A stretch of DNA of 64,000 nt from an uncultured Verrucomicrobia subdivision 3 bacterium (lineage in GTDB: Bacteria; Verrucomicrobiota; Verrucomicrobiia; Limisphaerales; UBA11358). Location of the stretch: positions 69,487 through 133,486 of the forward strand of contig CAIPKV010000059.1 in the NCBI GenBank assembly GCA_903865745.1, read 5' to 3'. Shown here piece by piece: positions 343-62,775 of this stretch. A model generated the notes under the pieces. It was not told the origin of the DNA, searched no databases, and was given only the letters and a program-made list of their open reading frames with translations. Position 1 is the stretch's first letter; the number at the start of each line of letters is the position of its first letter. Made by a program: the position numbers and the translations under genes.

Positions 343-971
343 GACGTAGATGTTTTTAAAAATGCACCTAGTTCATCCGCCTATGCAGATGTGTCTCCGG
401 CCGGCAGCCAGCCGGGTTTTTGTCCCATCTGGCAGCAAGAGTTATTCTTAAACCATAAAAAATAGTTAGGATTTGTTACAAACCGATGTCGGTTTGGCAA
501 CAGATGGGAAACTGTTTCGTAGGCTTTTCAACAGTTTTTTAGCCTGCGCCAATAAATTAAATCATTTTATAGTTTCACCCATCGCCAAAAATATGCGGCG
601 TGGTCTGTAGGTTTTTATGTCGAAATAGTTTGGTTAGAACTTTTTTGTCACCGGATTGTCACCATTCTGACAGGAGTTTGTAATATAGAATGCCCAGCCT
701 ATCCCGACGCAGAGTTTTTAGATGCATCCTGCCATTAACGGCAAGGAAGTGGTCGTAAACTTTAGTGCCTGGCCTTGTTGTAGGCTGGCTGTTTTTTAAC
801 AATACCGATTGCGAACGGACCGCCGGACAACAAATTATAGGCAACCATGAACATATTTACTTTGTTCACCAGCAAAGCCGCCTCAAGCCGCCAAGGCGTA
901 AAATCCGTGCGGCTGGCAAAGTGTGCTGTTTTGACTGATTTCTTGCTAGTCTGGCTGAGCATCGGGCTGGA

Positions 972-8719: not shown

Positions 8720-9120
8720 ACGACCTTTCGGGCAGATATATTTTATGCCAGGCGGAATGAAATTGACGATGCTTCCAGCCAAGTTGACTGCAAGCGCAGT
8801 GACTTGACCGATTAGCGCGGCCACAAAACCTGCCAGCCACGGCAGATTTACCGCCGTCGGCATGACGGCGACGACAGTCGGTGCCACGTTTACTACTCCC
8901 GGCATGGCGATGACTGTAGTCGGCATGACAAACCTTACAGTGTTCGTGACGAACCCTGTAGTCGGGATGACAAACCAAATCTTCGGCAAGGCAAACTCAA
9001 CAGTGAACGGTGGCAAACACTATCTTCGGGATGACAAACCTTACAGTGTTCGTGGCATCGCTTACAGTCGGCGTGGCAAACCCTGCAGTGTTTGTGGCCC
9101 CCAAACGGGCAAAAAGTGGC
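8720..9120 (-). repeat. Array 1: about 19 degenerate tandem units of 21 bp (two units are 22 bp)
   Basis: On the minus strand, units begin GCCAC/GTCAT at 9120, 9098, 9077, 9056, 9035, 9014, 8992, 8971, 8950, 8929, 8908, 8887 and 8866, and continue in register to about 8720. The consensus is GYCAYGMMGACTGTAAGGTTT. The units at 9056 and 8950 match at 20 of 21 positions. Confidence 0.85.
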
Positions 9121-26694: not shown

Positions 26695-28860
26695 TTAGTG
26701 GGTCGTGAAGGTGCCACGATAGTAAATATCAACGTAGTCGTTATTGGTATCGTACTGGCTCCAAAGAATATTACCGGCGTTGGTATTCTTGAAGTTTAGC
26801 TGCAACCAGTCAGTGCCGATGACAGTATTGGAATAAAGATAGCTCAATTGCACCATGGCAGTACCAGGACTGAAGTTCGTGTAGGTGTAGTTCCCAGAAT
26901 AGGTGCTGGGAAAGAAGGGATTATTGTAGATGGTGTAGACAAAACTTCCAGTATTGGTGAATTGGATGTTGGCATAGAAGCCAATTGGCAAAGTTAGGTT
27001 CGTGATACTGGCCGGCGCGTAATTGGAAGCGGTCGTCATCACAAACGAACTGAGAGTGCCGTCGCCGTTGGTGAATAGACCGGTATTGGGGGCGAAGAAA
27101 ATGAGCCGGGCGGTGCTGTTGGTCCCAGACAGTATGGGTGGTTCGGTGGCCGTAAGATTGAGTTGCCCGATGTTGGTGGCGGCACGGTTGTAAGTGTAAT
27201 TGCCCACGTCGTTGTCAAAGTTGGTGTTCACCGAAGCCTGACCGTAAGTATCCACGCCAAACTGCAAGTTGAAACTGCCATCCACGGAATAAATCTGAAA
27301 GCTACGATTGCTAACCGTAAGCGGTGCGTCTCCGCCAGCCACTTGCGAGTCGATGAAAAACCGTCCGGTGTCTGTGCCATTGGTCTGGCCGCTGGCGGTG
27401 TAATCAGACTCGGAATACCCACCATAATTGGTAGCGTCGAAGCTGGCTATTAGGTAGGTCGTGCCATTGGTCCCAGTCAGCTTGAGCAGCGCGCCAATGG
27501 GGCTGTATTGCGTGTAGGTGTAGCTGCCGGAGTTGGTGTCCCCGGAAATCAGGCCGGTCGTTGTGTAGGTCGTGGTATTATAAAGTGTGCCGTTGCCGTC
27601 GCCCTGACTGCCAATGGACCAGATTAATTTGCCAGTAACGTTTGCCGGGGCGAAATTGGAAGCAGCGGTGAACTGCATATAGCCGGTGTTCGTCCGAGTG
27701 GAGTTGGTGATGCCGACCTGTGCAAAGCTGGGGGTGTAAAACGCCATGCTAAAATTCTCCGGATTATTAACGATGCTAGGCGGGGCGGTGTATTTGAACC
27801 GCAACGTGCCGCCGCCGCCGGAGGGAGTGTAAGTGTACGTGCCCACCCCGTCAGGGTAGTTGGTATTCTGGGAAACTTGACTGAAGGTGCTTTTGCCTAA
27901 GGTGACCGTGAAGAGCGTTGTGTTACTCACATCGGTTACGCCAGCGGTCTGTCCCGCTAAACTCGCCGGCGCACTGTTATAAACCAAGTTGACAACAAAG
28001 GTCGCGGAAGGATTATTGCTAGAATTCACGGCATATGCATTGAAGGTGTTTGCACCAGGTAACAGACGGACATTGGCCGTCCAATTGGTCCAGTGATTGG
28101 TGGTGGCGGCAGACTGCCAGAAGCCACTGTTCAGTTGATAATACACGTTGGTTACTCCGACTTTATCCGAGGTGGTGCCTTGGATGACAAAATCGGCAGG
28201 ATATCCGTTGGTGCTAGGAAGTGTGCTCCCCACGCTGATCGTCGGCTTGCCCAGATAACCGAAGTTGGCAACGAGGGTGAGGTTGGAAGTCATGAGAAAC
28301 GTCACCTTAGCGGCGGTGGTCAAGACGTTGCTGTTACCGTCCGTCCAGTTCCTGAAACCGTAGCCCTTTTGGGTGCCTTTGCCTGCCTTTGCCGACATAT
28401 AATAGCTCTTGCCGATGACCAGTTGCTGGCCGTTGTAATTCGGAGTGACGGTGCCGTTACCGTTGATTGCCACGGTCATAGCGGTGCTCACGGAGTAAAA
28501 TACCTTCACGGTGTTGGTCGCCGAAGATTTCCCGGTGTTATCCAAGGCGCTGGCGGCAAAGGTGTTGGTTCCCGGAATCCAAGTAATCGGGGCGGACCAG
28601 CTCGTCCATGGGCTGGCACCTGTTGCATTATTCCAACTGCCTTGATTTAGCGAGTAGACCACGTTGGAAATCCCGGCGCTGCCGGAGGTCGTGCCGGTAA
28701 TGGTGTAAGCAGCGCTGGTGAATGTTTGGCCCGACTTGAGGTTGGTGAAGGATACCGTGGGCTTGGTGGCAGCCAGAATGGTGTTGGTCGCACCCGTTAG
28801 CGCGACAATCAAGCACAACAGCGGTAAATGAACCGACAACTGACGGCAATATGGTTTCAT
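26695..28860 (-). CDS. Large secreted repeat protein with two Ig-like domains, a bacterial-repeat domain and four C-terminal modules of about 100 aa
   Basis: The ATG at 28860 gives a signal peptide (MKPYCRQLSVHLPLLCLIVALTGATNTILA). There are two paralogous Ig-like domains (KPTVSFTNLKSGQTF..NTFAASALDNTGKSSATNTVKVFY and KPTISVGSTLPST..NTFNAYAVNSSNNPSATFVVNLVY). Four modules are centred on GTYTYTPSGGGGTLRFKYTAPP, GSYTYTQYSPIGALLKLTG, GNYTYNRAATNIGQLNLTATEPP and GNYTYTNFSPGTAMVQLSY. Confidence 0.7.
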   Translation of the reverse strand: MKPYCRQLSVHLPLLCLIVALTGATNTILAATKPTVSFTNLKSGQTFTSAAYTITGTTSGSAGISNVVYSLNQGSWNNATGASPWTSWSAPITWIPGTNTFAASALDNTGKSSATNTVKVFYSVSTAMTVAINGNGTVTPNYNGQQLVIGKSYYMSAKAGKGTQKGYGFRNWTDGNSNVLTTAAKVTFLMTSNLTLVANFGYLGKPTISVGSTLPSTNGYPADFVIQGTTSDKVGVTNVYYQLNSGFWQSAATTNHWTNWTANVRLLPGANTFNAYAVNSSNNPSATFVVNLVYNSAPASLAGQTAGVTDVSNTTLFTVTLGKSTFSQVSQNTNYPDGVGTYTYTPSGGGGTLRFKYTAPPSIVNNPENFSMAFYTPSFAQVGITNSTRTNTGYMQFTAASNFAPANVTGKLIWSIGSQGDGNGTLYNTTTYTTTGLISGDTNSGSYTYTQYSPIGALLKLTGTNGTTYLIASFDATNYGGYSESDYTASGQTNGTDTGRFFIDSQVAGGDAPLTVSNRSFQIYSVDGSFNLQFGVDTYGQASVNTNFDNDVGNYTYNRAATNIGQLNLTATEPPILSGTNSTARLIFFAPNTGLFTNGDGTLSSFVMTTASNYAPASITNLTLPIGFYANIQFTNTGSFVYTIYNNPFFPSTYSGNYTYTNFSPGTAMVQLSYLYSNTVIGTDWLQLNFKNTNAGNILWSQYDTNNDYVDIYYRGTFTTH

Positions 28861-46135: not shown

Positions 46136-47646
46136 GCCTTGCCAAACCCCTCCGCCAACGCGATGGCCTTCCGCATTGCCATGGATTTGTTTACCGTCTC
46201 CTGATATTCGCCTTCCGGCGTCGAATCGTTCACCCAGCCGCCGCCGGCTTGGACGAAGGCCCGGCCGTCCTTGATGAGCGCCGTGCGAATGGTAATGCAG
46301 GTGTCCAGATTACCGTTGAAGGAAAAATAGCCCACGCAGCCCGCGTAAGTGCCGCGTGTGGTCTGTTCGAATTCAGAGATGATCTGCATCGCGCGGATTT
46401 TCGGCGCGCCGCTGACCGTGCCGGCCGGAAACGTCGCGCGCATCAAATCATAATTCGACTTATCGGCGGATAAATTCCCTTCCACCTGCGACACGATATG
46501 CATGACATGGCTGTAACGCTCCACGATCATCAAATCCTTCACCGACACGCTGCCGAAATCGCAGACGCGGCCGATATCGTTGCGCGCCAGATCCACGAGC
46601 ATCACGTGCTCGGCGCGTTCCTTCGGGTCGGCGAGCAGTTCCTTTTCCAACGCCTTATCCTCATCGTCCGTCTTGCCGCGACGACGCGTGCCGGCGATGG
46701 GGCGAATCTCCACCTTGCCCTCTTCGCAGCGAACGTGCAGTTCCGGCGACGCCCCGACCAGCGCGAAACCATCCAGCTCCAGCAGAAACATGTACGGCGA
46801 AGGATTGATGCTGCGCACTGCGCGATAAATATCCACCGGCGACGCCTTGACCGGCGCGGAGAACCGTTGCGAACCAACCACCTGTATGATGTCGCCCGCG
46901 CGAATGTATTTCTTCGCCGCCTCGACATTCGCAAAAAACTTCTCCGACGACTGGTTGGATTCAAAGGAAATCGGCGGCACCTCCGCTGGCAACGTCACCG
47001 GCTGATGTTCACTCGGCTGTTCCAGCAGCGAGACGATGCGGTCAATCTCGCTCGTCGCATTTTCGTAGGCCTCCGCGGGCGATTCAGCGTCCTCCAAGAC
47101 CGCGTTGACCAGAATGGTAATCGTCTGCTGCGCGCGGTCGAAGGTGAGCAATTGGTCGGCGATAAGGAAATACATCACCGGCGTCTTCAATTCATCCACC
47201 GGCGGACGCGGCACGGACGGTTCCACGTCATGGATGAATTCGTAGCCGATGAAGCCGATGGCACCCCCCGTGAAGCGCGGCAGACCAGGCGTCGTCACCG
47301 CGCGGAATTTCTTCATCACGCGCTCGACCACTTCCAAGCCGTCCTTCACGTCGCGACCGACCACGAAACTTTCCGTCACGCGCCCGTTCTCGAAGATTTG
47401 GACTTGGCTGCCGTCCTGTCGGATGACGGCGCGCGGGTTGCAGCCCACGAACGAGTAGCGCCCCACATGTTCGCCGCCTTCGACCGACTCGAACAGGAAC
47501 GATTCGCCCTGACCCCGGATTTTGCGATAAGCCGAGAGCGGCGTTTCGAGGTCGGCCAGGATGCGACGCGCGACGGGAATGAGATTTCCCTGCGTCGTGA
47601 GCTTCAAAAATTCAGCAGCAGTCGGCGAATACATAGAAATAAGCAT
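46132..47646 (-). CDS. trpE: Anthranilate synthase component I
   Basis: This 504-aa ORF has the chorismate-binding-enzyme motifs ..GTYAGCVGYFSFNGNLDTCITIRT.. and LFESVEGGE. Confidence 0.93.
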   Translation of the reverse strand: MLISMYSPTAAEFLKLTTQGNLIPVARRILADLETPLSAYRKIRGQGESFLFESVEGGEHVGRYSFVGCNPRAVIRQDGSQVQIFENGRVTESFVVGRDVKDGLEVVERVMKKFRAVTTPGLPRFTGGAIGFIGYEFIHDVEPSVPRPPVDELKTPVMYFLIADQLLTFDRAQQTITILVNAVLEDAESPAEAYENATSEIDRIVSLLEQPSEHQPVTLPAEVPPISFESNQSSEKFFANVEAAKKYIRAGDIIQVVGSQRFSAPVKASPVDIYRAVRSINPSPYMFLLELDGFALVGASPELHVRCEEGKVEIRPIAGTRRRGKTDDEDKALEKELLADPKERAEHVMLVDLARNDIGRVCDFGSVSVKDLMIVERYSHVMHIVSQVEGNLSADKSNYDLMRATFPAGTVSGAPKIRAMQIISEFEQTTRGTYAGCVGYFSFNGNLDTCITIRTALIKDGRAFVQAGGGWVNDSTPEGEYQETVNKSMAMRKAIALAEGFGKA

Positions 47647-47795
47647 GAAGAAATTCGCCTAAAGAAACAACCAGTTTAGTAGGTCGCCACTGAAAAGTCC
47701 GGCGCGGCTACCGGAACCGGCGCCGCCCCAATCGCCCATAGATTTGCCATTGCCGCGTCGAAAAACCCATAAATGAGTCCGTTTCACCCTCAAGC

Positions 47796-48026
47796 GCGTA
47801 TTCGTTTGCTACAAACGCATATGCAAATAGACCATCCGCATATGCAAACGTGGCATCCGCATATGCAACTGCGGTATTCGCGTATGCAAATGGGGCAAGT
47901 GCATATGCCATTGGGGCATTCGCATACGCAGATGCTCCAATTGCATATGCGGATGCGACAATCGCATAGGCGATTGCCATAAACAAACACGCGGATGTTC
48001 CAAAGGAACACGCAGTTGCCGTCCCC
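47796..48026. repeat. Array 3: 11 tandem units of exactly 21 bp carrying a GCATATGC palindrome
   Basis: Core starts lie at 47817, 47838, 47859, 47901 and 47943 (perfect GCATATGC). One-mismatch cores lie at 47880, 47922 and 47964. More degenerate units lie at 47796, 47985 and 48006. Confidence 0.9.
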
Positions 48027-48091
48027 GCGTGGGCCAGCCGGTATTCCATATCTGTGTTTCATCTGGGTCCATCTGTGGCTAAAATCCCCGC

Positions 48092-54604: not shown

Positions 54605-55694
54605 GAATTTCCCTGCCTTTCCAATCTACCGGTTGCTTGCGCACAGCGCGCCAGACCGAACGGGTGAAAATGATAAAATAAAAAAATAAAGGTCCGGGAA
54701 AAAACATCGCCGTGGTCCAATGAAAAGTGCCAACCCGCCGTAATAACAAACCAACCTGCGCTGCGTAAGCCGCATAGACTAGGAAATAAACTGGCATATT
54801 TTGGGCGAGGAGCAGATTGCTGGTTGCCATAATGAGGCCACTCATCCAAATGATTACCAAAAGCAGCAAGGGTAGTGGTGTCTTGCCCGCGCCTGCCGCA
54901 AAACCTTTTATCCAGCCAGCTATCATTTCACGCCAGCCAAGCGGATACATGCGAAAAGAAAAGACGTTTGTTCCACCGCGGCAATGCAATGTTACGCCAG
55001 CGGCACGTAATTTCTCTGCCAACCAGAAATTTTCCAGCACCTGCTGCTTCACTGCCTCGTGACCACCCACGCGAAAGTAAGCCGACTTTTCAATCAACAA
55101 GAATTGCCCGAGCAATCCACGTGGCACTAAATGGTCGCCTAGCAGTGTGAAGGCGCCCGTACCCGCGAGCATCACTAGATTGAAAAATGCAGAAAACTGT
55201 TCATGTAATCGATCAACTTGGTGAAGCGGAGCAACGGACAGGGCTCCGCCACCGACAGCGCAAAATTCGCTTCGCACGGCTGCCAGTCCGTTCGGCTCAA
55301 ACCACGTGTCAGCATCCAAAAAAAGTAGCCAAGTGCCATGTGCTTGCGCTGCGCCATGCTGGCAGGCCCACGTTTTTCCGCGCCAGCCATCTGGTAGCGT
55401 CGGCGGTCTGACAACGCGCGCACCAAGTTCCACCGCTACAGCCGCGGTGCGGTCGGTGGAGGCATCGTCGACAACAATGATTTCATCTGGTGGAAACGAC
55501 TGGTTTTGCAATGAGCGCAGTAAGCGCGGGAGGTTTTTTTCCTCGTTACGCGCTGGAATGATGACTGATAGCTTTTCAATCTTTCCCGCCGTGCCGTCGG
55601 CGACCGCCCGGCAGGGCTTGATGCGGGCTAGTGTTGCCCAACCCGCCAACCAGAATAGTGCGAGGACTATCAAAGTCATCATGACTTGTCCCAC
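54594..55694 (-). CDS. Family-2 glycosyltransferase (carotenoid glycosyltransferase-like, CrtQ type)
   Basis: It has LSVIIPARNEEKNLPRLLRSLQNQSFPPDEIIVVDDASTDRT and C-terminal TM helices. It overlaps both neighbouring genes. Confidence 0.75.
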   Translation of the reverse strand: MGQVMMTLIVLALFWLAGWATLARIKPCRAVADGTAGKIEKLSVIIPARNEEKNLPRLLRSLQNQSFPPDEIIVVDDASTDRTAAVAVELGARVVRPPTLPDGWRGKTWACQHGAAQAHGTWLLFLDADTWFEPNGLAAVRSEFCAVGGGALSVAPLHQVDRLHEQFSAFFNLVMLAGTGAFTLLGDHLVPRGLLGQFLLIEKSAYFRVGGHEAVKQQVLENFWLAEKLRAAGVTLHCRGGTNVFSFRMYPLGWREMIAGWIKGFAAGAGKTPLPLLLLVIIWMSGLIMATSNLLLAQNMPVYFLVYAAYAAQVGLLLRRVGTFHWTTAMFFPGPLFFYFIIFTRSVWRAVRKQPVDWKGREIRAG

Positions 55695-57160
55695 GCGACA
55701 ATTTTTTTGGCGACATTCTGACCGCAGAGCACAACCATCGGCATGCCGCCGCCGGGGTTCACCGAGCCGCCGACGAAGAACAGGTTCGGATAGAGAGTGC
55801 TTTGTTTCGGTGCTTTGAACGCGAGATTTTTCCAGCGGTCGCTGACGACGCCGTAGATTGAACCTTTGTTGGAATTATATTTTTCTCGGATATCGATTGG
55901 CGTCAGTACGTGCTCGAACACAATGTGCTCTCGCAAATCTTTGAGACCCATGCGTTCGAGTTTATCAATGATGCGATCCTTGAATCTTAAATAGTCTTCG
56001 CGAGTTAGAGGATGTTGGTCATTGATATAGGGAATGTGCGGCAAAATCTTCAGGCAATCGCATCCCGCCGGCGCGACGCTCGGATCAGTCTTGGAAGCGG
56101 CCACGAGATAAATCGTTGGATCGGTTGGTAATTCGTGTTTCTCGAAAACCGTTTTGAAATGTTTCTTCTGGTGATCAGTGAAAAAGAAATTGTGGTGCGC
56201 GAGTTGGGGATATTGGCAATCAAGTCCCAAATCCAGTACCAGCCCCGAACAGGCGGGCTCGAGTTTTTTCTCCAGCGAGGCAATGAAGGTTTTATCCGCG
56301 CGCAATAATTTTTCGTAAGCCGGAATGACTTCCATGTTTGATACGACGATGTCGGCGCTGTTAAATTTGCCATTGGCAACGAGGCCGGTGACGTGGCCAT
56401 TTTCCTGACGCACTTCGCCGACTTCAGCGTTAAGATTTACCTTAATACCGAGTTCGTTGAGCAGGCGGCCAAGCCCGCGCGCAATGTTGTAAAGTCCGCC
56501 GTCCACATACCAAAGGTCATATCGAAACTGGATTGTGGGCAGTGAATTCATGAACGCCGGCGCGCGATACGCTGACGAACCGACGTACTTGATGAAGAAA
56601 TCAAAGATGTCTCGAAAATAGCGCGTTTGCAGATGGGCTGCGACGCCTTGATGCATGGAGCGAAAGAGATCGAACTGGAAAAACTTCCACGGACCGTAGT
56701 GATTGGCAAAGCCCCGCCAGTTGTCCAAGCCGTTTTCAAAATAACCGTCGTTGGTCAGGTCGTAGAGGTCAGCGGAATATTTCAGGAAGCGCTCGATATT
56801 TTCTGGCGGTTCGCCGACTTTGCGTGCCTCGGCGGCCATTTTGTCCGGTTCCGGATACAAATCCAGTGTAACGCCATCTTCGAAGAAATTCCGCCAGTGT
56901 GGACGAAGTGGGCGCAGCGTAAAATAATCACTCATCCGCTTGCCGCTATTGGTAAACAGCCGCTCAAAGATATGCGGCAAAGTAAATATGGAAGGCCCAA
57001 GATCAAAAGTATAGCCCTGCGCTTGAAGTAAATTAAGTTTGCCGCCGATTTGTGGATTCTTCTCAAAAATCTCGACGGCATACCCGGCCTGTTGCAGGGA
57101 AATCGCGGCGGACAAGCCGCCCAAACCCGCGCCAATGACAACAACTTTTTTCTGCTTCAT
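55679..57160 (-). CDS. Phytoene-desaturase-family FAD oxidoreductase (second copy, CrtN/CrtP type)
   Basis: It begins MKQKKVVVIGAGLGGLSAAISLQQAGYAVEIFEKNPQIGGK and has the C-terminus FFVGGSVNPGGGMPMV. Confidence 0.85.
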   Translation of the reverse strand: MKQKKVVVIGAGLGGLSAAISLQQAGYAVEIFEKNPQIGGKLNLLQAQGYTFDLGPSIFTLPHIFERLFTNSGKRMSDYFTLRPLRPHWRNFFEDGVTLDLYPEPDKMAAEARKVGEPPENIERFLKYSADLYDLTNDGYFENGLDNWRGFANHYGPWKFFQFDLFRSMHQGVAAHLQTRYFRDIFDFFIKYVGSSAYRAPAFMNSLPTIQFRYDLWYVDGGLYNIARGLGRLLNELGIKVNLNAEVGEVRQENGHVTGLVANGKFNSADIVVSNMEVIPAYEKLLRADKTFIASLEKKLEPACSGLVLDLGLDCQYPQLAHHNFFFTDHQKKHFKTVFEKHELPTDPTIYLVAASKTDPSVAPAGCDCLKILPHIPYINDQHPLTREDYLRFKDRIIDKLERMGLKDLREHIVFEHVLTPIDIREKYNSNKGSIYGVVSDRWKNLAFKAPKQSTLYPNLFFVGGSVNPGGGMPMVVLCGQNVAKKIVAWDKS

Positions 57161-57939
57161 GGATTAATTATAGCTTGTATGCTAGTGATGCGAAACAGCC
57201 CGGTTCGCGCCAGATTATCCGCAGGATGTTCCGCCAGTGATTTGTGAAAAAACTCCGCTGCACGCGAGCGGTCGCCAAGTTTTTCATACGTCAGGCCGAT
57301 AAAAGTGTGGCAACTACTACGCCCCCAGTGCGGTTCGAGTGGATTTTGGGCGCGGCTAGCTTCGTCTGCAAAATAAGTTTCTGCGAGCAGTAAATCATTC
57401 AAGGCTTTGCGTAAATCCGCTTCGTCACTGGCCATGTAATATTCCCCCGTGGCCAGCAAGTAACGCACCCTTGGATTGGTGGCACCTTCTTTCATCGCTT
57501 TTTTGGAATGGCTCATGGCGCGTGGGCCCAGCGTCACGGCACGGATCCAGTGTTCCCCAATCCTGATGCCGTAAATCGTTGCGAGGAGCGCGTGGGTTTC
57601 GGCATTATGCGCATCTAAATTCAGGGCTTCATTGAGCGCGGCCAAGGCAGCGGTGTCGGCTTTTTCCGCAGCAGTATCATTTCCCGGAGTGCTGCGTAAT
57701 TGCAGCATGTGGTGGAACTCGGTCACGCCTAGCCAGTAGAAATTCGTCGCGTTTTTTGGTTCGCGTAAGGTTTCCTCCCGGAATATTTCGCCAGCGTGGG
57801 AGAATCGCTCACCATTCCAGGCCTGAAACGCGGCGTTAAATTCAGCAATCCCGGCCAGCGTGGAAGGCGGGTTGGTGACGTTGTCGGCGCGTATTGAAAA
57901 CGAGCCGAGCAATACGCTCAAAATCAAAAGATGAAACAT
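57157..57939 (-). CDS. Secreted TPR-like helical protein, first gene of the carotenoid operon
   Basis: The ATG at 57939 gives the signal peptide MFHLLILSVLLGSFSIRA. It has helical-repeat character. Its stop overlaps the desaturase start (ATGA). Confidence 0.55.
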   Translation of the reverse strand: MFHLLILSVLLGSFSIRADNVTNPPSTLAGIAEFNAAFQAWNGERFSHAGEIFREETLREPKNATNFYWLGVTEFHHMLQLRSTPGNDTAAEKADTAALAALNEALNLDAHNAETHALLATIYGIRIGEHWIRAVTLGPRAMSHSKKAMKEGATNPRVRYLLATGEYYMASDEADLRKALNDLLLAETYFADEASRAQNPLEPHWGRSSCHTFIGLTYEKLGDRSRAAEFFHKSLAEHPADNLARTGLFRITSIQAIINP

Positions 57940-57985
57940 CGCTTGCCAATTTATACGCTGCGAGACAACTTTCACCAAATTGTTT

Positions 57986-59368
57986 ATGCAATTCAACACC
58001 GCTGTCCTTCGCGCCCGCAGCTATTTCGCGACCGGTGTCACGCGCCCAGTGGTATTTCGGCGGGAACAGTTAAACAAACTTTCCGCCGCGCTTCGACAAC
58101 ATGAGCCAGCTTTGCTTGCCGCACTGCAAGCTGACCTTGGCAAATCACCTTACCAATCGCTGGCTTCCGAACTGGGTCTGGTGCATGCGGAAATCAATCA
58201 CGCCTTGCGCCATTTATCAAGTTGGGCTGCGCCATCGAAGCGGCGCACGCCGTGGCTCGTCGCGCCGGCAGACGGTTGGGTGCAAGTGGAGCCGTTCGGC
58301 GTCGTGTTGATTCTCGGTCCGTGGAATTATCCGGTGCAACTGCTGTTAGCGCCATTGGTCAGCGCCATCGCAGCCGGCAATGCGATTATTCTGAAACCGT
58401 CTGAACTCGCACCGCGCACAGCCGAAGCGCTCAGCATTTTAGTCGCCAAGACTTTTCCGCCGGAATACATCTCGGCAGTCAATGGCGGTTCGGAAGTTGC
58501 CGAGGCGTTGTTGCAGGAAAAGTTCGACAAAATATTTTTTACCGGGAGCGCGCGGGTAGGCCGCCTAGTGATGACGGCGGCGGCTAGGCATTTGACGCCA
58601 GTCACCTTGGAACTGGGTGGCAAATGTCCCGCCATCGTTTGCGCAGACGCAAAGGTGGAACTCGCCGCTCGTCGCATTGCTTGGGGCAAATTTATTGGCG
58701 CTGGTCAAACCTGCGTCGCGCCCGATCACGTTTGGGTTCATCGGAGTATCCGCGGGCCATTTTTAGCGGCGCTTAAAAAAACGCTGCGGGAGTTTTACGG
58801 GGAAGACCCATCTGCCAGTGCCGATTATGGTCGCATCGTCAACCAGCAACATTTTGACCGGCTGCTGAAATACCTCGGGGATGGAAAAGTCTTTCACGGC
58901 GGTGAAAATGACGCGGAGAAATTATATCTCGCACCGACAATTTTAACCGACGTACGGCCAAAGTCGCCGGTGTTGCAGGAAGAAATCTTTGGACCTGTTC
59001 TACCTGTTCTCGAATTTGACGACTTGGACGAAACCTTGACCCAACTGCAAGCTGCCCCCACGCCGCTGGCGTTATATGTATTCACCGAAAATCGTTCGCT
59101 GGAAGACAAAATCCTCAACACCGTGCGCTCCGGCGGCGCGTGTGTGAACGATGTCATCTCGCAAATGGTTGGAACCGGTTTGCCGTTCGGCGGTTTGGGC
59201 GAGAGCGGCTTCGGCAGCTATCATGGGCGCGCCGGATTTGATGCCTTTTCACACCAGCGTTCTGTGCTGCGGCGCGCCACTTGGTTGGATTTACCTTTCC
59301 GTTATCCGCCCGCGCGGCTTGCCATCCCCACCTTGAAACGTGCGCTTCGTTTTCTTCTGCGTGGCTGA
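57986..59368 (+). CDS. Aldehyde dehydrogenase (class-3 / fatty- or carotenoid-aldehyde type)
   Basis: It has the ALDH motifs ELGGKCPAIV and CVAPD (catalytic Cys) plus EEIFGPVLPV. It is divergent from the carotenoid operon. Confidence 0.85.
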   Translation: MQFNTAVLRARSYFATGVTRPVVFRREQLNKLSAALRQHEPALLAALQADLGKSPYQSLASELGLVHAEINHALRHLSSWAAPSKRRTPWLVAPADGWVQVEPFGVVLILGPWNYPVQLLLAPLVSAIAAGNAIILKPSELAPRTAEALSILVAKTFPPEYISAVNGGSEVAEALLQEKFDKIFFTGSARVGRLVMTAAARHLTPVTLELGGKCPAIVCADAKVELAARRIAWGKFIGAGQTCVAPDHVWVHRSIRGPFLAALKKTLREFYGEDPSASADYGRIVNQQHFDRLLKYLGDGKVFHGGENDAEKLYLAPTILTDVRPKSPVLQEEIFGPVLPVLEFDDLDETLTQLQAAPTPLALYVFTENRSLEDKILNTVRSGGACVNDVISQMVGTGLPFGGLGESGFGSYHGRAGFDAFSHQRSVLRRATWLDLPFRYPPARLAIPTLKRALRFLLRG

Positions 59369-62422: not shown

Positions 62423-62465
62423 GAATGGGACGATTCTTCGCAAGTCATTCAACTTAAGGTAGCAA

Positions 62466-62500
62466 CTGAGCCGCTTATTCAAAAAGCGGCTCAGCTTTTT
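62466..62500 (+). terminator. Rho-independent terminator of the P3 gene
   Basis: There is a perfect 11-bp stem, CTGAGCCGCTT-attcaaa-AAGCGGCTCAG, followed by CTTTTT. Its 3' arm is also the first unit of array 4. Confidence 0.8.
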
Positions 62501-62775
62501 GTAAAAGCGGCGTCGCTTTCGGGAAAAGCGGGTCCGCCTACGGCGACGGCGGGTCGGCTTTTTGGATAAGTGGCTCCGCTTTTCCCGTAGGCGGGACCAG
62601 AGTTGCCGACGGCGGGTTCGCCTTGGCCGACGGCGACGCGGCTTTTGGCAAAGGCGGGTCAGCCTTTTGAATAAGCGGCTCCGCCTTTCCCGACGGCGAC
62701 GTCGCTTTTTGCATAAGCGGGTCCGCCGGTGGCGACGGCGAACCCGCTTTCGCTGCCGGCGAGGCTGGATTGAAG
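62484..62775 (+). repeat. Array 4: 14 tandem units of exactly 21 bp (42-bp super-period) built from small GC hairpin/palindrome units
   Basis: The GCGG/GCGA core lies at 62486, 62507, 62528, 62549, 62570, 62591, 62612, 62633, 62654, 62675, 62696, 62717, 62738 and 62759. All spacings are 21 bp. Confidence 0.9.

Follow-up and report, generated by a model that had tools for sequence, protein, structure and literature searches.

The gap between the divergently transcribed trpE and recF genes in the 64-kb stretch of verrucomicrobial DNA analyzed here (referred to as the window) carries a tandem array of 21-bp units which, judged by the sequences of its relatives, is a recent, species-specific insertion and not an ancestral regulation of trpE, recF or trpS. 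Its units are exactly phased, their palindromic core is constrained, coding signal is lacking, and a second copy lies elsewhere in the window. The explanation that we favor, tentatively and with less than even confidence, is that the array forms a young non-coding multi-site docking platform for a putative DNA-binding protein encoded elsewhere in the genome; binding of such a protein, and any effect on the neighboring genes, we infer. The 21-bp module combines two conserved blocks, GCATATGC and TG-N3-CA, one helical half-period (10.5 bp) apart, and its copies, placed every two turns, would present one DNA face to the docking protein. Such a platform could work either as a cluster of operators or as a decoy; the intergenic region that holds it, flanked by the divergent promoters of trpE and recF, is plastic.

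Phasing, core constraint and polarity of the array

The array consists of nine 21-bp units (positions 47796-47984) with the consensus GCATATGCAAATGCGGCATTC, and was assigned periods of 21 and 42 by TRF. As reported in the first-pass annotation, an 8-bp palindrome or a one-mismatch variant of it recurs at eight positions in 21-bp phase: the exact core GCATATGC is present five times (47817, 47838, 47859, 47901 and 47943), one-mismatch cores occur at 47880, 47922 and 47964, and the spacing from 47817 to 47964 is exactly 21 bp throughout. The degenerate flanking units described there were recovered in part. The sole degenerate unit flanking the array on the left is the ninth one (GCGTATTC, core at 47796), decayed unit-like sequence lies further left (47725-47755), and a degenerate inverted unit, GCGTGTTCCTTTGGAACATCC, is found on the right (47993-48013, minus strand, PWM score 9.9), but positions 47985-48026 are mostly unique, and the array ends at about 47984, not at 48026 as had been proposed. 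The right-hand unit contains the palindrome TGTTCCAAAGGAACA, i.e. TGTTCC-AAA-GGAACA, which is perfect at 47995-48009, about 85 nt upstream of recF, and which resembles GAAC/GTTC-type LexA boxes, but with a spacing one nucleotide longer than that of the Verrucomicrobia motif. The array locus has the same sequence in each of four independent assemblies, which rules out an artefact of assembly.

Exact copies of GCATATGC in the 64 kb numbered 6 versus 1.13 expected, a count reached in none of 100 shuffles, and the only copy outside the array is at 28031. Locally, the octamer is extremely enriched. A literature search for this octamer returned primers and unrelated motifs only. Restriction-site avoidance was considered and rejected, CATATG being present 28 times in the relatives versus 37 expected and hence not specially avoided.

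Conservation within the units is uneven. Only 3 of the 64 core cells depart from the consensus, whereas 33 of the 104 spacer cells do so (Fisher p = 1.4e-5), and the three core changes are confined to the mirror-image positions 3 and 6. The best-kept spacer columns are T12, G13, C17 and A18, with 7, 7, 6 and 8 matches, respectively, among the 8 units; the TG of columns 12-13 and the CA of columns 17-18 form a second dyad, TG-N3-CA, with its center 10.5 bp from that of the core. An 18-bp dyad-symmetric element, CA-N3-GCATATGC-N3-TG, repeats with 3-bp gaps, which gives a two-turn, same-face period of 21 bp, and since the module recurs every two helical turns, all copies lie on the same side of the DNA. 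The difference between core and spacer argues for constraint at the nucleotide level rather than neutral decay, and the two-block, same-face geometry suits a protein reading two successive major grooves, or a dimer on the 18-bp palindrome.

These data bear directly on the main rival of the docking platform, a functionless or selfish minisatellite, for which a 21-bp partly palindromic seed, possibly from the AraC-family promoter region (342-400), would have been amplified by slippage and inverted duplication at a permissive site between genes and would now be decaying. We regard this as somewhat unlikely. Neutral decay predicts about 20 core changes where 3 were seen, all of them at the two mirror-image positions, and a unit identity of 62-84% indicates no fresh expansion. 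The arrangement of the units, on the other hand, is what such a duplication history predicts, since they point both ways and decayed copies lie at either edge. An oriented PWM scan, along with matrices of spacer identity and complementarity, revealed that the spacers fall into two classes, which are reverse complements of each other. Five units form an 'L' block (47817-47921, plus strand, PWM scores 25-29), in which the core is followed by a AAATGGGGCATYC-like spacer. Two inverted 'R' units (47930-47971, minus strand) scored 30.2 and 25.2, and core 47922-47929 is their head-to-head junction with the L block, while one more inverted R unit at the left edge (47804-47824, minus strand, PWM score 18.2) shares core 47817 with the first L unit. 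Because the unit blocks stand in opposite orientation, a long imperfect palindrome with 94-nt arms (70% complementary) extends over the array.

The polarity agrees a little better with an asymmetric reader, for example of the AraC/XylS type, than with a simple symmetric dimer. Over all units, the spacer has 5 of 6 mirrored consensus pairs, a value partly inflated by mixing both orientations; for each orientation class alone, a hand count gave 4 of 6, a level that 15% of coding arrays also reach and that counts against the docking platform. The initial suggestion of a cooperative array of dimeric proteins on one helical face needs amending, for the phase, the core constraint, the second dyad and the extra copy (see below) fit docking, but the units are polar and not simple symmetric sites.

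Several known systems share parts of this architecture. ArgR binds ARG boxes, 18-bp palindromes about 3 bp apart that serve as tandem operator boxes for the oligomeric repressor, and the array resembles them in its 18-bp dyad-symmetric element, 3-bp gaps and 21-bp same-face period. It differs from them in having 8-9 copies instead of two, in a sequence unrelated to the ARG box, in polar units present in both orientations, and in not being kept upstream of the relatives' genes. Plasmid and phage iterons measure 17-22 bp, and the partition centromere sopC of F consists of 12 43-bp repeats, each with an inverted repeat. In common with these, the array is made of tandem repeats in helical phase whose core is conserved and whose spacers have diverged, and some iterons and centromeres have palindromic cores too. 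Unlike them, it has no adjoining rep or par gene, lies in an insert of only about 370 bp and shows no GC-skew turn; BLAST of the insert against plasmid and phage records gave no match. A replication origin was likewise rejected, since there is no GC-skew turn at the array. REP/BIME elements and MITEs are similar in being short, palindromic, intergenic and species-specific units that stand in both orientations, with at least one further small copy. In contrast to those elements, the module was found at only two loci in about 79 kb, and the array lies between divergent gene starts instead of at 3' ends; neither terminal inverted repeats nor a target duplication could be recognized, and the unit is shorter than typical REPs. 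The repeats of type III toxin-antitoxin RNAs and CRISPR have a length of 34-40 nt or a repeat-spacer structure; both were rejected for the array, whose units are 21 nt long and contiguous, with trpE as the next gene and no adjacent toxin or cas gene. The array belongs to no described family among those tested, whereas helically phased tandem repeats resembling binding sites are already known as a kind.

The trpE-recF gap in related genomes

The neighbors of the array, identified correctly in the first-pass annotation, are trpE (anthranilate synthase component I), recF (RecF) and trpS (TrpRS). The longest trpE ORF does begin at 47646 (MLISMYSPTA..), the start initially assigned to it, but its relatives begin at the equivalent of 47634 (MYSPTA..), and the true, conserved start is probably this second ATG. 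The closest TrpE loci among GTDB species representatives came from uncultured Verrucomicrobia subdivision 3 / Verrucomicrobiia MAGs (69-88% identity). The same divergent trpE/recF order was found in five relatives (L008, L009, L256, L258 and L315), whose RecF is 91-97% and TrpE 86-97% identical to that of the window, the 97% being that of a 63-residue fragment in L256. Their trpE-recF gap is only about 90 bp long, and neither the array nor any repeat was present in any of the five, so that conservation of the array along with this gene order was not borne out. Compared with these relatives, the window contains a lineage-specific insert of about 372 bp (47679-48050, with an approximate trpE-side boundary) that bears the array and has no counterpart in them. 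As the array occurs in no relative, there is no evidence of conserved function.

The sequences on either side of the insert are of a different kind. The recF-proximal segment (48051-48091, plus strand), which is not in the insert and is a probable recF promoter, is kept in the window and all five relatives, where its 40 nt read ATCTGTGTTTCATCTG..ATCTGTGGCTAAAAT-N6-GTG. It contains three ATCTGTG direct repeats at 10-11-bp spacing, the third of which, TGTGGCTAA, resembles a DnaA box, as well as TAAAAT six nucleotides ahead of the recF GTG, a position that suggests a leaderless recF mRNA. In the empty-site relatives, trpE has the same layout, GGCCAAAAT-N6-ATG, with a -10-like element six nucleotides before the starts of both genes. 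The trpE-proximal segment of about 45 nt (47635-47678, minus strand), probably the trpE promoter, is common to the window and a sixth relative, L257, and absent in the empty-site relatives.

In L257, the trpE-recF gap holds a different insert (L257 positions 1946-2475), which replaces the conserved recF promoter segment and is composed of two small ORFs that overlap on the recF strand, the first 63 aa and the second 91 aa long; the latter gave a weak sub-threshold match to RelE/StbE (E = 0.003). With the array lacking a counterpart in the relatives and another cassette present in L257, the gap emerges as a hotspot for small accessory insertions, and the array as lineage-specific. Both its presence in one species only and the unrelated L257 cassette in the same spot, with nearby gaps varying as well, speak for the minisatellite, as the site evidently tolerates junk. 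More generally, restriction to one species, a gap that accepts unrelated insertions and the lack of an identified partner protein count against any function. The recF-trpS gap, 124 bp long in the window, contains an extra 0.85-1.1 kb in L256 (1358-2206) and L258 (3572-4650).

No intermediate relatives were found in the protein collection, the RecF and TrpE 90%-identity clusters each holding the sequence of the window alone, and every recovered copy of the locus was identical around the array, i.e. showed no strain polymorphism there. A second assembly of the same organism (L002) departs from the window only beyond about 55.5 kb, where the two differ at 913 positions over about 2.6 kb in the carotenoid/glycosyltransferase region (window 55500-58100), which is a strain-variable or recombined segment.

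The first-pass annotation had raised a response of expression to tryptophan or DNA damage as a point to be tested; on this reading, such signals would control trpE and recF through a conserved operator array. Its location between two divergent starts with trpS downstream would be in keeping with this, as would the phased, dyad-symmetric palindromes in helical phase. Comparative support is lacking, however: the five relatives with the same gene order have no array in their short gap, recF-trpS linkage was found in relatives without the array, and the conserved recF-proximal segment lies outside the insert. We therefore consider control by these signals very improbable.

In 28 of 80 more distant relatives (L012, L016, L017, L019 and 24 others), trpE is directly preceded, about 600 nt upstream, by a conserved gene for a multi-pass membrane protein of about 200 aa with no Pfam match, the last helix of which holds ..G(I/M)(V/I)AYA(I/V)AV... 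The single GCNTAYGC matches upstream of trpE in these 28 relatives are due to the AYA encoded by this helix. Descent of the array from this gene as a remnant was rejected, since GCNTAYGC is coding there (..IAYAIAV..) and its DNA has no similarity to the insert.

Open reading frames, transcripts and other repeats

Four ORFs do extend over the array, as listed initially, with lengths of 113, 90 and 87 aa on the minus strand and 69 aa on the plus strand, and the plus-strand GCA-TAT-GC frame is also open over most of it. Because at least four of the six frames are open across the array (five with the plus-strand AYA frame), openness by itself carries no information. The longest ORF (47708-48049, minus strand), with A-Y-A heptads, is uninterrupted and has a start codon, and is most likely no gene. 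As a real orphan gene (48049-47708), it would encode an Ala/Tyr-rich protein of A-Y-A-x-x-x-x heptads, helical or membrane-associated, which we consider improbable. Its 113 open codons span the insert and the three one-mismatch cores are all synonymous in this frame, both of which would be in line with a gene. A single-sequence AlphaFold model gave one long helix (mean pLDDT 76.5), a result that is uninformative, as any Ala-rich sequence would yield it. Pfam and NCBIfam contained no match, a word-indexed search of 5.8 billion clustered proteins found no homologue, and a full HMMER search of 1.84 billion representatives returned three marginal matches (E 1e-4 to 1e-3), none of them a real homologue: all three are heptad proteins unrelated to the ORF, in which DGTTVYA or PTAYSLQ, for example, is repeated. 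Furthermore, no gene was called there in the four assemblies, and the coding score of 0.10, versus 0.127 for the 5th percentile of the window's real genes, is low. The commonest Ala codon of the ORF, GCA, is the rarest Ala codon in the genome (11%). Non-consensus cells numbered 11, 13 and 12 at the three codon positions, i.e. neither codon periodicity nor a third-position excess was seen, and no spacer columns are better conserved than 18 and 12, both of them third positions. The first-pass view that the overlapping ORFs are by-products of CATATG periodicity was thus upheld by the lack of homologues, the atypical codons and the absence of codon periodicity.

One analogy in favor of a gene came from viral contigs, where GCNTAYGC arrays phased at 21 nt represent true coding heptads in almost every case (AYAQANG in tail-fibre-like ORFs; SPAYAPG). 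These phage and giant-virus arrays have a signature identical to that of the window array, GCNTAYGC every 21 nt. They differ from it in lying in long ORFs (examples of 232-1283 aa) with mostly near-identical units, and none of 195 reached 5 of 6 mirrored spacer pairs, the value of the window array, which is inflated by orientation mixing. The 113-aa ORF, in contrast, is an orphan with atypical codon usage.

Alternatively, a minus-strand (trpE-strand) transcript of the array could act as RNA, forming a long imperfect hairpin that serves as an sRNA or as a leader insulating or attenuating trpE. The L and R unit blocks are mutually complementary, the minus strand folds at -114.4 kcal/mol (z = -9.1) versus -97.3 for the plus strand (z = -6.3), and a terminator-like hairpin with a T-run is located on the minus strand at 47715-47698. 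This terminator-like region, however, is no more stable than shuffles (z = +0.75), no sigma-70-like promoter site was found, and Rfam gave no family at threshold, only sub-threshold look-alikes of miRNA precursors. The excess of G.U-compatible mismatches on the minus strand was not significant (10 versus 4) and no pairing register was favored, which means that there is no covariation signal; the uneven conservation of core and spacer is also unlike the prediction for a uniform stem. A trp attenuator is excluded by a single Trp in 113 codons and by absence in the relatives. A role as RNA is in our judgment about as doubtful as the orphan gene.

The same 64 kb contains two more arrays between genes whose period is close to 21 bp, which is a further point in favor of the minisatellite. 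The first (62455-62775), between a gene for a 125-aa protein and that for the CCA-adding enzyme, comprises about 14 units in a 21-bp register, with a higher-order period of 42 bp; a unit reads approximately TTTTTGNATAAGCGGNTCCGC, and its dyads alternate (AAAAGCGG..CCGCTTTT). Its RNA fold is -182.6 kcal/mol (z = -7.0), and its minus frame gives xAYAKSx heptads, but with in-frame stops. By eye, its consensus resembles the trpE-recF unit (TTTGCATAWGCGG), though nhmmer detected no significant link between the two, and the nhmmer matches of this array in the relatives' DNA were GC-rich coding noise. The second (8850-9110) has a period of 64 bp, equal to three sub-units of about 21.3 bp with GACAAAC, and its fold is not significant (z = -0.6). 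Periods of 21 or 42 accounted for 16 of 46 TRF rows in the relatives' loci (L005-L084, 80 trpE loci), or 23 of 55 including those of the window; several of these arrays in the relatives' trpE loci are heptad repeats inside long ORFs, and one in L054 (150-305) is intergenic, has units in inverted blocks and resembles the 62455 array of the window.

A second copy near an AraC-family gene

A second locus of the module, with about two units in phase, was found at 362-400 (plus strand). Its best 18-mer, CATCCGCCTATGCAGATG at 374-391, scored 22.6 with a matrix built from the eight units, compared with 22-27 for the array units and 9.8 for the next best site of the window. With independent bases, about 0.001 sites of this score would be expected by chance in 64 kb, and 1 of 400 second-order Markov simulations reached it (p about 0.003). 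The site is separated by 31 nt from the ATG (342, minus strand) of the gene for a 301-aa AraC-family regulator, which is divergent from a ShlB/TPS two-partner secretion operon, and 362-400 lies in the divergent promoter region between them. No regulator gene adjoins the array itself, the sole candidate being this AraC-family gene. The search for palindrome clusters elsewhere, raised with the original observation, thus yielded one two-unit copy in about 79 kb of this species and none in 906 kb of the relatives' DNA, where the exact octamer GCATATGC occurs only twice; nhmmer with the array against about 1 Mb of the relatives' DNA gave self matches only.

Only this species' copy of the AraC-family promoter resembles the array. 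The orthologous promoters (L341, L342 and L344; regulator 70-75% identical, same synteny) are alignable at the site and lack the palindrome, with a best score of 9.4, and the conserved element there, CAAACCGACATCGGTTTG, is located further upstream. This absence counts against the docking platform. The intergenic region that separates the ShlB/TPS operon from the AraC-family gene contains the palindrome CAAACCGATGTCGGTTTG (window 479-496), which is also present in L341, L342 and L344 inside a block of about 45 nt strongly conserved across species; this palindrome is probably the true conserved operator, or an RNA element, of that region.

The resemblance of 362-400 to the array, closest for the first two L units, spans 39 nt and includes spacer positions. 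It fits either a shared binding protein or sequence copying/gene conversion between the two loci; the inclusion of spacer positions suggests copying in place of a shared operator and is in this respect another point for the minisatellite.

A more specific form of binding would make the module the recognition site of the AraC-family regulator, with a two-unit copy in its own promoter and the trpE-recF array as a newly amplified cluster of that site. The I1-I2 sites of AraC, like the XylS sites at Pm, recur in direct repeat at an interval of about 21 bp and have two contact boxes separated by one turn. The array resembles these half-sites structurally, and in structure only, by having asymmetric units of about 21 bp in direct repeat (five in the same orientation) with blocks 10.5 bp apart, and the two-unit copy is followed directly by an AraC-family gene, relative to whose ATG it spans about -70 to -32. 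It differs from them in that the element is absent from the orthologous regulator promoters and that the array is not at a -35 position. Moreover, the AraC/XylS family is not known to have arrays of five plus three or four sites. Recognition by this particular regulator is, in our estimate, unlikely; if true, the two loci would be a snapshot of an operator being copied and multiplied, to become a decoy or a new regulatory link to unrelated genes.

Phased palindromes between two genes should not be taken as regulation without comparative support, and on either main explanation, platform or minisatellite, the array gives no insight into how tryptophan or recF is controlled. Should it be junk, the only lesson is that insertions are tolerated in the trpE-recF gap of this verrucomicrobial lineage. 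Should a protein bind it, the array would be a natural example of a multi-site binding array that arose very recently in a bacterial chromosome, with its likely source copy still visible in the same genome, and would bear on the origin of regulatory DNA and of transcription factor decoys.
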